From: Archaeoglobi archaeon JdFR-42
Lineage (GTDB): Archaea > Halobacteriota > Archaeoglobi > Archaeoglobales > JdFR-42
DNA: 64,000 nt
Direction of reading: 5' to 3'
Assembly (NCBI GenBank): GCA_002010305.1
Contig: MTND01000022.1
Coordinates: forward strand, 110,128-174,127
The stretch's first letter is position 1; every line of letters begins with the position of its first letter. Positions 19,908 through 43,635 of this stretch are shown piece by piece. Below the pieces are notes generated by a model that was given only the letters and a program-made list of their open reading frames with translations, was not told the origin of the DNA and did not search any database. Position numbers and translations under genes: made by a program.

Positions 19908-20177
19908 TTACTGTTTAGCCAGAGTAATCTCTATTGCAGATACATTGGCCTTATCATCACTCGTCTCCACAGATTCAGTGGCAATCTGAATATCTTTGAC
20001 ATCGACATCTGTCAAGAATCTCTTCCTGACAATTTCTGCAACATCGACAGCCCTAGAAATCGCTCTTCCCCTTGCCTTAACAACTACTTCTTTTGCACCA
20101 CTATTGAACTGGGTAATCACAGCCAGCACATAGTTCATTACAGGTTTGTTCCCAACAAAAACCACATGTTCTTCCAT
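19908..20177 (-). CDS. albA: Alba DNA/RNA-binding chromatin protein
   Basis: 89 aa, [20 protein letters not shown]...[20 protein letters not shown]. Confidence 0.9.
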
Positions 20178-39557: not shown

Positions 39558-40628
39558 GTGTTTTTGATGACGGAGGGGGAAGAATTGAAAAATAAGCAGA
39601 ATGATGCTAAAAAAGATACAGGTGTTGTTCCCATAGGAATTAAACTGGGTTCTCAGCGAACTGTGGTTGTTACAGGAGATAATACTCACGTTATCCAGAC
39701 ATGTGTTAAAGAAAGTGAGAATCCGATTACTGGTGAAAAGGAATATGTGGTTGGGAATGAAGCTCTAGAGCTGTATGGCGATGAGGCCATCTACATGTTG
39801 AGAGGAGGATTGCCCGGAAATGATGAGGAAGCAGACCTTCTTAGAGTCTTCTTGGGCCATATTATAGAAGAATATGGTCTTACTGAAAACAGTTATGTTA
39901 CATATGCCGTCCCCTCTACAGAAAATGAAGCGGGAATAGATCTAATTAAAAAAGTTATAAGTCAGGTTCCTGTGGGTTGGGCTGGTAAAGAAATATGGAA
40001 TGACTCCTTCCTTGGTGCCTCAGCGTTTCCTGAGGGCATTGATATGATTGAAAAAACGTTTCTAGTGATCAATCTCGGATCAAGTACTACAGAACTGGTG
40101 GCGGTGAGAAAAGGTGAGATAATTCTAAATATGGTTACAGGAACTGTTTGCGGCGATCTTGTGGATAGATGGATCAAAAACGAAATCCAGAACGAAACTC
40201 GAGGAGCAGTAAACGTTGATCTGACTACCGCCAGAATGTACAAGGAGACGTACGCTAATCTAAAGAAATGGGAAAACGTTCAGGAGTCTGTCCATCTTTT
40301 TGAACGAGGGAAGTTCAGTTTTAGAATTGACGAATGTATTATACGACCAATAATCAGATATCTAGATAGACTTGTTGACTTTATGTGTCTGGAGTTCTTA
40401 CCAGAACTTGCGGAAAGCCACTTCTCTGTGTATAAGCAGGTTCTGAACAGGGAATTTATACTTGTAGGTGGAATGGCCGAAATTGAGGGTTTGAAAGAGC
40501 GTCTTGCAACAAAACTGGCTGAAGCTCTTGGTACAGGAATTTCAATTAAATGTCCTGAGAACCCAAGTACTGCTTCAGCACGTGGAGCATATCTAATTTC
40601 CAAATACAGGATTGAAAATAAACAGTAA
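39558..40628 (+). CDS. divergent actin/MreB/Hsp70-fold protein with degenerate phosphate-binding motifs
   Basis: 356 aa. Phosphate-1-like IGIKLGSQRTVV, phosphate-2-like LVINLGSSTTELV and adenosine-like ILVGGMAEIEGL. The usual Asp residues are replaced by Lys and Asn. An alternative ATG lies at 39567. Confidence 0.55.
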   Translation: MFLMTEGEELKNKQNDAKKDTGVVPIGIKLGSQRTVVVTGDNTHVIQTCVKESENPITGEKEYVVGNEALELYGDEAIYMLRGGLPGNDEEADLLRVFLGHIIEEYGLTENSYVTYAVPSTENEAGIDLIKKVISQVPVGWAGKEIWNDSFLGASAFPEGIDMIEKTFLVINLGSSTTELVAVRKGEIILNMVTGTVCGDLVDRWIKNEIQNETRGAVNVDLTTARMYKETYANLKKWENVQESVHLFERGKFSFRIDECIIRPIIRYLDRLVDFMCLEFLPELAESHFSVYKQVLNREFILVGGMAEIEGLKERLATKLAEALGTGISIKCPENPSTASARGAYLISKYRIENKQ

Positions 40629-40644
40629 AAAGCGGTGAGATGGG

Positions 40645-41190
40645 ATGGTGACTGACATTGAGGCTAAATTGGCAAGATGGGATGAATTATTTGAAGATTT
40701 AAATAAAATTGTTCAAGAGATCATTCCTACTATTGAGAAGACCAGAGAGGAGCTGGATAAAAGGATAACCGAAATTGAGAAGAGGTATATTCTAATAAAA
40801 AAGGATTTGGACGAACTACAAAAGAAATTCAGTGGAGTGGAAACGAAAGCTTATGAAAGTACTGAAAAGATAAAAGCCAAAGTAGAAAAAGAAACACTCC
40901 AGAAGATCGATATTGAAGCTATTAAAAAAGAACTGAATGAGGAAATAAAAAAACTACGGGATGAAGTAGATAAAGTCAGAAAAGTAGGAACCACTCTAAG
41001 GCCAGATGTCACAGAAGAGATCAGAGAAATCAAATCCATTTTATCAAACCTCAAAGAAGAAGTTAAGAAAAATAAAGAATCCATCGATAAACTCTCAGAG
41101 GACATGGAAAGTTTCATTGTGTTTTTTGAAAAGAGAGGTGTTGAAACCATCAGGAAAAAAATTGAGTTCAAGTCTCCCCGGATATTATGA
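40645..41190 (+). CDS. coiled-coil protein
   Basis: 181 aa, K/E-rich heptad-like sequence throughout. Starts 16 nt after the actin-fold gene. Confidence 0.55.
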   Translation: MVTDIEAKLARWDELFEDLNKIVQEIIPTIEKTREELDKRITEIEKRYILIKKDLDELQKKFSGVETKAYESTEKIKAKVEKETLQKIDIEAIKKELNEEIKKLRDEVDKVRKVGTTLRPDVTEEIREIKSILSNLKEEVKKNKESIDKLSEDMESFIVFFEKRGVETIRKKIEFKSPRIL

Positions 41191-41260
41191 GCTGTAAATT
41201 TACAGGCTGATACTCCACCGGTAAAGAGCATATGAACTTTCCACAACAAAAGTGGTGAAA

Positions 41261-42079
41261 ATGAAACAGCAGTTATCAGAGCTTTCTAATAAATTAAAGC
41301 GCATTATAGATAAATATCATCTTCTGAAAAAGGGTGGTGGAGAGGTTATATGCATACTTTCTGGTAAGGGTGGGGTGGGGAAGACAACTCTGGTTATCAA
41401 CATCGGTTCCAGTCTAGCGTTGAAAAATAAAAAAGTTCTTTTAATTGATCTGAACTTTGCCCTTCCAACCCTACATCTGTTTCTTGGGGAAAAGACAGAG
41501 GTTACTATGACCCATTATCTCGCCGGAATTTCTGATTTGGAGAATATCGTTCCTGGAAAGATTAAATTGAAATCAGGTGAAGAGGTATCTGTTATTCCTT
41601 CTGAATCTCTTGTTAACCTTGGTGAGAGAATAGACGTGGAGAGGCTCGGTGCAGCCATTAACCATTTCAGACTGTATTTTGACTATATATTTCTGGATGT
41701 GGGCCCCGGTATGAGCAAGTATTCCTTATATCCCATAACGGTATCCGATAGAGTGTTCATAGTGTCTGTTGATGAGTGGCCAGCTTACAAAGATGCTATG
41801 AGTGTTAAAAAAATGATCAAGTCTATGGGTTCTGATGATGATGGATTTATATTAAATATGGTAAAAACTACCAATCCATCGAAGCTAAAGCATAGGTGGG
41901 GCGATTCTATTTTTGGAGTTATCCCCTATGATAAACATCTCAAACTGGCTTTTCAGAATGGGGAACCAATTTTTAACTACAAATTGAGTTTTCTGTCTAA
42001 AGGGAAAAAGTATATTGACAGGATAGCAGAAAAAATAATTTTTACGTACTCTATTACGGAATATGATTTTAGATTGTAG
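41261..42079 (+). CDS. MinD/ParA-family P-loop ATPase
   Basis: Deviant Walker A SGKGGVGKTT and Walker B IFLDVGPG. The ATG at 41261 is preceded by GGTGA. Confidence 0.8.
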   Translation: MKQQLSELSNKLKRIIDKYHLLKKGGGEVICILSGKGGVGKTTLVINIGSSLALKNKKVLLIDLNFALPTLHLFLGEKTEVTMTHYLAGISDLENIVPGKIKLKSGEEVSVIPSESLVNLGERIDVERLGAAINHFRLYFDYIFLDVGPGMSKYSLYPITVSDRVFIVSVDEWPAYKDAMSVKKMIKSMGSDDDGFILNMVKTTNPSKLKHRWGDSIFGVIPYDKHLKLAFQNGEPIFNYKLSFLSKGKKYIDRIAEKIIFTYSITEYDFRL

Positions 42080-42738
42080 TGAGAGAAGAGTTATTTTGTA
42101 GATTTGAAAGTTTTAATTTTTGTGTGCAGGAAATATAATACTCCTTTTAAGAGTTCTTCTTTTGAAAGAACAGAAAAATCCATATCACTGATCCATCCAT
42201 CTACCATGCTTTCAGAGCATATACAGGAATTGAAGTTCTTGAAGAGACGGTTGTTGAATCCACCGTTGTTGCCCATCTATCAAGGGTTTGTGATGTTTAC
42301 TTCTGGAAAAACGCATCAGAAGTTGATGCCATATGCAATATTGATGGAAAACAGATCGGGTTTGGGGTTAAATGGGGTGTTAGGTCATGGAGACGGCCAA
42401 AACATCTTGACAGAGAGTTTCTGCTTGATAAAAGTAAAATTCCAACTTTTCTGGCCTCAGTAGCATGGTAACCCGATGTAACAAACAATGAAAAATTTAA
42501 TTCCCTGTGGTATATGGGATGGTTATCACGAATGTGGGTTTTACAGGATTTTCACATTCTTATGTCATTATAGAGCTTTCAACACAATCACATTCTGCAG
42601 AATGCTACAGTAACAAAAGTAAATCTAACTTAAAGTAAAAGCTCTATCCTCCATGAAAAGGAGCCAGAAATGAAACCAGTAAAAATATTTTAATATCTTG
42701 GTGACCATCCATTCTGTGTTTCATGGGGGACTCTGAAA

Positions 42739-43635
42739 ATGAGTGATAAATTTAAACTTGAATTAACAAAACTGAAGGCCAGACTTGTTTTCCCGAAGGG
42801 ATTTCAACTGCCATACTGGCTGGGAAACAAATTCAGAGGGGGTTTTGGTTCTGTTTTAAGAAAAGCGATATGTGGGTACCTCAACCCTGACTGCCTGGAC
42901 TGTAGACAGAGAAATGACTGTTTGTATTACGATATGTACGAGAAAGAGAAGCAAAAACGAGGGTACGGGAAACCTGTGAGACCTATTATATTCATTCCTC
43001 CATTTTTTGGAAAATCCCTCACAGTTGAGAAGGATGGTTTTCTAAACCTAGACATTCTTATGTTTGGATACTATGACAGATACCTGCCCCATCTCATTTA
43101 TGGCCTTCGCTTTCTGGGGAAACTCGGGCTGAATAAGTTCTCGAAATACTATATTGAGGTAGTGGAGTGTGTGGGTAAAAAGGTATATGATGGCGAAACG
43201 ATAATAGTTGAGAATCTGAGAAAAATCAATCTGGGGAATGTGGATTATACCAAATACAGGGGTGTAAAAAAACTAAAGATACTTTTCAGGACACCCATAG
43301 ACCTAGAAAAAGAAGAGATCTCTCTGGAATTTCTATTGAAAATGATTCGGAAAAGGCTCATTCTCTTCACTAACGAATATGGGGCGGGTAAAATCCCGGA
43401 CTTCCTATGTGAAAGCAGGACATTGACCCAAAAACTCAATTCTCACAAATTGCCCCATATCTCTAAAAGGCATGGAAAACGGACTTTCAGAGGGTACACC
43501 GGGTATTTTGAGGCGGAAGTTGAACACATGGATGATTTTGCCGTTAACTTACTGGCCATAGGCGAAGAAATAGGTGCAGGCTCAAAGTCCAGTTATGGTA
43601 TGGGATTTTTCAGGGTTGAATCAGAGAATGGTTAA
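42739..43635 (+). CDS. Cas6-like RAMP protein (DUF2276/Cas6 C-terminal type) with N-terminal 4-Cys cluster; orphan
   Basis: 298 aa. C-terminal glycine-rich loop GAGSKSSYGMGFF, N-terminal FRGGFGSVLRKAICGYLNPDCLDCRQRNDCLYYDMY. No CRISPR array or cas genes in the window. Confidence 0.55.
   Translation: MSDKFKLELTKLKARLVFPKGFQLPYWLGNKFRGGFGSVLRKAICGYLNPDCLDCRQRNDCLYYDMYEKEKQKRGYGKPVRPIIFIPPFFGKSLTVEKDGFLNLDILMFGYYDRYLPHLIYGLRFLGKLGLNKFSKYYIEVVECVGKKVYDGETIIVENLRKINLGNVDYTKYRGVKKLKILFRTPIDLEKEEISLEFLLKMIRKRLILFTNEYGAGKIPDFLCESRTLTQKLNSHKLPHISKRHGKRTFRGYTGYFEAEVEHMDDFAVNLLAIGEEIGAGSKSSYGMGFFRVESENG

Follow-up and report, generated by a model that had tools for sequence, protein, structure and literature searches.

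A stand-alone AF_1859-type Cas6 gene in the assembled genome of the Archaeoglobi archaeon JdFR-42

The gene at positions 42739..43635 on the plus strand of the window (the whole 64-kb stretch of DNA analysed here, part of contig C1 of the Archaeoglobi archaeon JdFR-42) almost certainly encodes a Cas6 of the AF_1859 type. The protein consists of 298 amino acids, its reading frame is intact, and it is an ordinary member of a known Cas6 family that does not define a new system. The gene stands alone within the window, and the archaeon has one assembled CRISPR-Cas system, of type I-B, on the same contig. We tentatively favour the reading that this Cas6 was left behind intact when its module was lost and is still active, acting only in trans, either on the type I-B array beside the resident Cas6b or on incoming arrays. 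A core processing enzyme would then have persisted, intact and at a normal evolutionary rate, after its effector module and arrays were gone, and the intact orphan together with split and truncated copies in the same order would form a visible decay series.

The ATG of the open reading frame lies in register with the N-termini of the homologues in the alignment. The subfamily-level Cas6 model PDLC01373 of PADLOC matches the protein from residue 5 to residue 295, effectively over its full length, with an E-value of 5e-98. Of the more general profiles, PF01881 (19.3 bits), PF10040 (18.3 bits) and TIGR01877 (28.4 bits) all score below their curated cut-offs and cover the C-terminal third only; the initial annotation had proposed a search with the latter two. 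The structural model that it had also proposed shows the Cas6 fold: an AlphaFold2 prediction from 27 homologues reaches a pLDDT of 91 and a pTM of 0.89, and both of its halves contain the β-α-β-β-α-β elements of an RRM (ferredoxin-like) domain, so that two such domains lie in tandem. In a Foldseek comparison with the PDB, the top 38 listed matches are all Cas6 proteins or Cas6-containing complexes, the best of them (6dd5, 4ill, 4c9d, 3pkm and others) with E-values of 1e-11 to 1e-8, a probability of 1.0 and TM-scores of about 0.5-0.6. The Cas6/RAMP identity first proposed from the letters alone is borne out by the PADLOC model and the fold. Almost all homologues with 50-57% full-length identity belong to Archaeoglobales; the precomputed Pfam annotation of these homologues is the pair PF27225 and PF10040, named AF_1859_N and CRISPR_Cas6, respectively. 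The family is also widespread in bacteria (ESM Atlas), and a deep HMMER search returned 1,130 representative clusters at E-values up to 1e-3.

All of the motifs quoted in the initial annotation are found in the protein, namely FRGGFG (residues 32-37), the four cysteines spaced CX6CX2CX5C and a C-terminal glycine-rich loop. The cysteines (C45, C52, C55 and C61; codons at 42871..42921, plus strand) form a loop in the N-terminal RRM domain, between the helices of residues 29-44 and 62-68 of the model, where the pLDDT of 78-86 is somewhat below that of the rest. They are invariant in the homologue alignment, including the copies within ordinary cas loci. Among 122 full-length distant representatives, 121 keep all four, and the exact spacing is kept in 100. 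The cluster noted earlier thus exists, but it is no peculiarity of the orphan; as judged from the alignments, it is a hallmark of the AF_1859-type family, and it is a probable metal site. In the C-terminal RRM domain, a long β-hairpin (model strands 224-242 and 246-264) carries H236, S242 and R244, whose codons lie at 43444..43470 (plus strand) and whose alignment columns are invariant, making them candidate RNA-binding or catalytic residues. The glycine-rich loop of residues 275-289 (43561..43605, plus strand), a Cas6/RAMP signature, contains the invariant residues G275, G281, S285, G287 and G289 and aligns with the G-rich loop of the solved Cas6 proteins 6fjw and 6dd5 in a profile comparison. 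The roles of these three residues and of the loop, like the chemistry and the position of cleavage, may be those known from the family.

The surroundings of the gene contain neither of the usual partners. No repeat-spacer array was detected in the 64-kb window by TRF or by a k-mer scan, and no cas homologues were detected by tblastn with the cas proteins of relatives or by family scans, in agreement with the isolation noted at first. The flanks are also as described there: a ParA/MinD ATPase (41252-42079) lies upstream, behind the genes of a Salactin-type actin and of a coiled-coil protein, and cas6 is followed by convergent leuB, leuD and deoxyhypusine synthase genes. The actin (PF25229, E 3e-94), the coiled-coil protein of 181 amino acids and the ParA/MinD ATPase form a tight three-gene cluster at 39558-42079 (plus strand), which may have a cytoskeletal or partition function, here in an archaeon that is not halophilic.

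Between the ATPase gene and cas6 lies a gap of 659 nt. Nearly half of it, 306 nt, is occupied by a stop-to-stop frame (42166..42471, plus strand) that we take as the C-terminal remnant of a DUF4143-type ATPase; the Pfam DUF4143 match (E 3.4e-5) covers profile positions 76-160 of 160 and, at 24.1 bits, is below the cut-off of 28.1 bits. Closer to the gene, an AT-rich TATA-like box is seen on inspection at 42680..42697 (plus strand), about 45-60 nt upstream of the ATG, and downstream of the box follows a G-rich, Shine-Dalgarno-like run at 42726-42731. This putative promoter and ribosome-binding site suggest that cas6 is transcribed on its own. The only Rfam matches in the window are two tRNAs, none of them in the gap, and the predicted RNA fold of the 267 nt directly upstream of cas6 is no better than that of shuffled sequences (z -1.1 for the plus strand and -1.6 for the minus strand). 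The ParA/leuB context was found in no relative among the 16 orthologue loci. Synteny with G093, the sole other genome of the same family, comprises leuB-leuD only, so that an insertion of cas6 and a deletion cannot be told apart from that genome.

The gene is isolated, but the genome is not devoid of CRISPR-Cas. The JdFR-42 assembly comprises 42 contigs and 2.15 Mb, with a completeness of 99.6% and a contamination of 2.15%, and a k-mer scan of all 42 contigs revealed two arrays. Array 1 (C1:65.3-69.8 kb) consists of 65 repeats of 30 nt with the 3' end ATTGAAAT and adjoins a complete type I-B operon of cas4, cas1, cas3, cas5b, cas7b, cas8b and a cas6b encoding 242 amino acids. This locus and its array lie on the window's own contig, 73-83 kb upstream of the orphan; the cas gene nearest to the orphan, at a distance of 73 kb, belongs to this locus with its own Cas6b. 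Array 2 lies on contig C20 beside a type III-A operon whose own AF_1859-family Cas6 is 28% identical to the window protein, and effector cassettes of I-D-like and I-A type are found on two further contigs, C36 and C37. Family scans place type III RAMP genes on C20 only and Cas1 on C1 and C20 only. The type I-A and III-B proteins of relatives have no tblastn match on the archaeal contigs beyond the type I-B locus, and the spacers of both arrays have no significant match within the assembly and no self-targets.

Contigs C20 (43.6 kb; L003, L069 and L070), C36 (7.8 kb; L048) and C37 (7.6 kb; L049) are bacterial contaminants. The tetranucleotide correlation of C20 is 0.89, compared with at least 0.98 for every other contig of at least 40 kb, and the contig is rich in integrases and defence genes and also encodes a primase-helicase. 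It carries a second tRNA-Leu(TAG) gene (20069-20151), which aligns over its full length to the tRNA-Leu of E. coli in 5,422 of 5,426 genomes and has no counterpart in 60 other genomes of the order; the tRNA-Leu gene of C1, taken as a control, has no E. coli match. C37 contains a sigma-70 gene and a Cas3 that is 61-64% identical to those of Thermodesulfovibrionales, Syntrophaceae and Saccharicenans MAGs. C36 shares its flanks with C37, and the two link only to one another. The combined length of the three contigs, 59 kb, amounts to 2.7% of the assembly and agrees with its stated contamination. We had considered a genome with four cas modules (I-B, III-A, I-A and I-D-like) in which the orphan would serve the cas6-less I-A cassette, and rejected this because C20, C36 and C37 are bacterial. 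The archaeon thus has one assembled CRISPR-Cas system; a CRISPR inventory that took this MAG at face value would wrongly count four.

The contaminants have features of their own. C36:1-7771 and C37:1-7556 form an assembly bubble, in which the same flanks (a WYL regulator and a 130-amino-acid gene, 95% identical over 1.1 kb; at the other end 84% over 0.33 kb) enclose two different type I effector cassettes, one I-D/I-B-like (Cas3d, large subunit, Cas7d and Cas5) and one I-A-like (Cas3, sigma-70, Cas8a, Cas11a, Cas7a and Cas5a). Members of a bacterial population appear to have swapped cassettes at a single locus. On C20, the 51 nt at positions 1071-1121 exactly duplicate the 3' half of the tRNA-Leu gene at C20:20069-20151, an att duplication that brackets an island of about 19 kb with a kinase, a deaminase, an Eco57I-type restriction-modification gene, an SNF2/PLD helicase and a primase-helicase. 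Elsewhere in the assembly, ARAGORN predicts a candidate tRNA-Pyl(CTA) at C7:3460-3553 (minus strand) and a candidate tRNA-SeC(TCA) at C13:13443-13529 (plus strand).

The distribution of AF_1859-type genes in relatives indicates which partners the orphan lacks. Within the order the gene is patchy, being present in 25 of 94 genomes and missing from the sole other genome of the same family. We inspected 16 orthologue loci with up to 10 kb of flanking sequence per side. Nine lie inside cas loci, five of them of type I-A, three beside type III operons and one beside Cas3; in the five type I-A loci, cas1, cas4, cas3'', cas3', cas8a, cas5a, cas7a and csa5 are followed by csa3 directly upstream of cas6. 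The orthologue of G001, which is presumably A. fulgidus DSM 4304, lies beside a III-B-like operon, 19 kb from an array of 44 repeats of 37 nt. Another two of the 16 are cut by contig ends. The remaining five stand alone. Two of these are intact, that of G091 as a csa3-cas6 pair and that of G049 as a solo copy, and three are broken, that of G078 by a split and those of G082 and G003 by truncation. An in-frame TAA in the G091 copy was considered as a disruption and rejected, as it is most likely the natural stop; the copy is counted as intact because its ORF of 288 amino acids is unbroken. The broken copies imply that stranded genes tend to decay. A related-locus search with the window Cas6 and with the Cas10 of C20 found no loci.

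The arrays beside the orthologues are built from 37-nt repeats. The 3' half of the repeat comprises a 3-bp stem enclosing a 7-nt TGAAAAY loop, followed by one base and an 8-nt ATTGAAAG handle. Repeats of this class occur in all six of the checked genomes with an intact AF_1859-type Cas6 (G001, G012, G073, G081, G084 and G088); a pattern search for the module returned 124 copies in G012, 16 in G084, 5 in G073, 73 in G081 and 16 in G088, and none in reversed controls. The stem differs between genera, being TCC/GGA in G001 (L075:9131-12400) and CCC/GGG in G081 (L034:12216-13250), while the loop and the handle stay constant despite the compensatory change. This covariation supports a real mini-hairpin that would be recognised by AF_1859-type Cas6. 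In G078, a single isolated relic repeat of the 37-nt class lies about 1 kb from the broken cas6. With up to 2 mismatches allowed, the JdFR-42 assembly contains no copy of the class, contig ends included, and a tolerance of up to 4 yields nothing but noise.

Repeats of 30 nt, the class of Array 1, follow the canonical TIGR01877 Cas6 instead: repeats and protein occur together in G001, G081 and G088 and are both missing from G012 and G073. In G084, an array of 20 such repeats lies at a contig start (G084:C5:54-1389), no canonical TIGR01877 Cas6 was found in this genome, and its sole Cas6 is of the AF_1859 type. Either a canonical cas6 lies beyond the contig start, or an AF_1859-type Cas6 can serve both repeat classes. 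For the orphan, the initial annotation had considered that it could be just a dispersed cas6 of a standard CRISPR-Cas locus with repeats to match; the standard locus is there, on the same contig, but its 30-nt repeat is not of the 37-nt stem-loop class found with this Cas6 type in relatives.

The gene appears to be old and native to the lineage. A maximum-likelihood tree places the window protein as sister (95/93) to a clade of nine Archaeoglobaceae orthologues (100/96), in agreement with the taxonomy at the level of families. Measured from the shared node, its branch is 0.45 long, against 0.52-0.68 for the others, and is thus not lengthened. The GC content of cas6 is 0.406 and its local tetranucleotide signature 0.978, which marks it as native. 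Of the 60 conserved columns, defined as at least 90% conserved among the other 26 sequences, the window protein keeps 57, compared with 50% agreement in the remaining columns; three near-invariant positions are changed (P193E, Y259A and F286Y). From the sequence comparison, these results argue for an old, vertically inherited gene that was under constraint over most of its branch, and they argue against a recent import or a long-dead pseudogene. They are silent on the date of the module loss.

We therefore give first place, as a tentative reading, to an intact Cas6 that outlived its module and still works in trans. The protein would be a bona fide AF_1859-type endoribonuclease for crRNA processing, whose gene descended vertically within the order and stayed while a type I-A or III module and the 37-nt stem-loop arrays were lost from the lineage. 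By analogy with solved Cas6 enzymes, it would bind the repeat transcript at a short stem-loop in its 3' half and cleave 8 nt upstream of the end of the repeat, so that the guide RNA would retain a 5' handle of the ATTGAAAG type. Since the frame is intact and there is no sign of relaxed constraint, it is probably an active, independently transcribed RNA endonuclease. Within the assembly, its only substrate would be Array 1, the 65 repeats of the type I-B locus 83 kb upstream, a locus that encodes a Cas6b itself. We infer the activity, the cleavage position, the loss scenario and any cross-processing of Array 1. Several points weigh against the trans-acting enzyme: the type I-B locus comes with a dedicated Cas6b, which leaves no obvious need for another processing enzyme; in relatives, repeats of 30 nt track the canonical Cas6 and not the AF_1859 type, G012 and G073 lacking both these repeats and the canonical Cas6; and the protein differs at three near-invariant positions, while the stand-alone copies of G078, G082 and G003 are broken.

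The same observations could mean that the gene is a functionless relic, recently stranded, with neither substrate nor role and bound to decay, a view that we consider rather unlikely. It would account for the lack of both the cognate repeat class and any type I-A or III effector in an assembly of 99.6% completeness, and for the three altered residues; the broken copies in relatives, that of G078 with its one isolated relic repeat, show where such a gene may be heading, and the adjacent DUF4143 remnant is a sign of local gene decay. Yet the frame of 298 codons is intact, with 57 of the 60 conserved positions retained, and despite a divergence of 43-50% from every known orthologue the protein shows no acceleration along its branch. 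The putative promoter and the putative ribosome-binding site would also speak against a relic, as do the intact stand-alone copies of G091 and G049.

Less probable still is that a partner 37-nt array, perhaps with a type I-A or III module, is present in the organism but missing from the bin, which would make the gene an ordinary dispersed cas6. The partner could reside in unassembled repeats, on contigs below a floor of about 2.5 kb, or on a viral or plasmid genome. The assembly of CRISPR arrays often fails, the smallest contig measures 2,642 bp, which suggests a length filter, and several contig ends are unlinked; in the reference genome, moreover, AF1859 lies apart from the I-A operon AF1870-AF1879 (PMC8036902). 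However, no partial repeat of the 37-nt class was found at any contig end or elsewhere in the assembly, and no type I-A or III effector gene on the archaeal contigs of an assembly that is 99.6% complete.

We give only a small chance to the proposal, made in the initial annotation, that the protein is an exapted endoribonuclease recruited to bind or cut a non-CRISPR RNA. An intact and apparently constrained gene of native composition, located among core genes and without a cognate array, would fit such a recruitment, and nothing that is present contradicts it; positive support for it is lacking, though. Stand-alone recognition-like modules outside arrays number 6, against 5 in a reversed control, and none lies in the window. 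There is no conserved new neighbour, given that the ParA/leuB context is unshared and the synteny with G093 is just leuB-leuD, and no family-specific residue changes point to a new specificity. The upstream gap, once suggested as the source of the substrate, has no Rfam family and no unusual structure, and the DUF4143 remnant fills 306 nt of it. The palindromic hairpin repeat family, suggested as a target, has AT-rich 6-bp arms, unlike the cognate 37-nt module. A role other than these four is very improbable.

A related idea is that selection has kept the Cas6 for another job, either non-CRISPR RNA processing or redox- or metal-sensing RNA binding through an Endonuclease III-like [4Fe-4S] loop. 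We regard this, too, as improbable. Such a [4Fe-4S] loop might be common to the whole AF_1859-type family, and it has apparently never been described for Cas6. The only non-Cas6 PDB profile matches of the window protein fall exactly on the Cys4 loop and pair it with the Fe-S loop of Endonuclease III, weakly and with an E-value of 0.93. A Zn ligand is at least as likely as an iron-sulfur cluster. Our literature searches found no paper describing an Fe-S or Zn site in any Cas6 and nothing relevant on the biochemistry of AF1859. Four invariant cysteines with the spacing of Endonuclease III and MutY are a family-wide lead that is cheap to test on any member.

The iron-sulfur cluster loop of Endonuclease III and MutY has the ligand spacing C-X6-C-X2-C-X5-C, and the Cys4 loop of the window protein resembles it in this spacing and in being short and rich in basic residues. 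The surrounding fold, by contrast, is unrelated to Cas6, and the profile match is not significant at the E-value given above. With the solved Cas6 enzymes, namely the Cas6 domain of the Marinomonas Cas6-RT-Cas1 protein (6dd5) and those of S. solfataricus (4ill), T. thermophilus (4c9d) and P. furiosus (3pkm), the window protein shares the tandem RRM fold and the C-terminal glycine-rich loop. Its identity to them is only 12-16%, and none of the solved chains matches its Cys4-bearing N-terminal domain by sequence profile, so catalytic residues are not transferable from them with confidence.

The closest counterpart is AF_1859 of Archaeoglobus fulgidus, which has the same two-domain architecture, Cys4 motif, glycine-rich loop and length. 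The AF_1859 group corresponds to COG5551, and the window protein is 54% identical to the orthologue of G001 and sister to the clade that holds it. AF1859 is the Cas6 of the reference type I-A locus; the standard classification, reproduced in PMC8036902, lists it together with AF1870-AF1879 as the reference system of this type. The AF_1859-type genes of relatives adjoin operons of type I-A or III, usually directly downstream of csa3, and are accompanied by 37-nt arrays; the window cas6, in contrast, has no csa3, no such operon and no 37-nt array. In the literature library searched, no systematic description of solo Cas6 copies was found. The nearest parallel to the arrangement as such is solo-Cas4 (Hudaiberdiev et al. 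2017, PMC5704561), which belongs to another protein family than Cas6 and is likewise a core cas family member located among unrelated genes, away from a cas operon.
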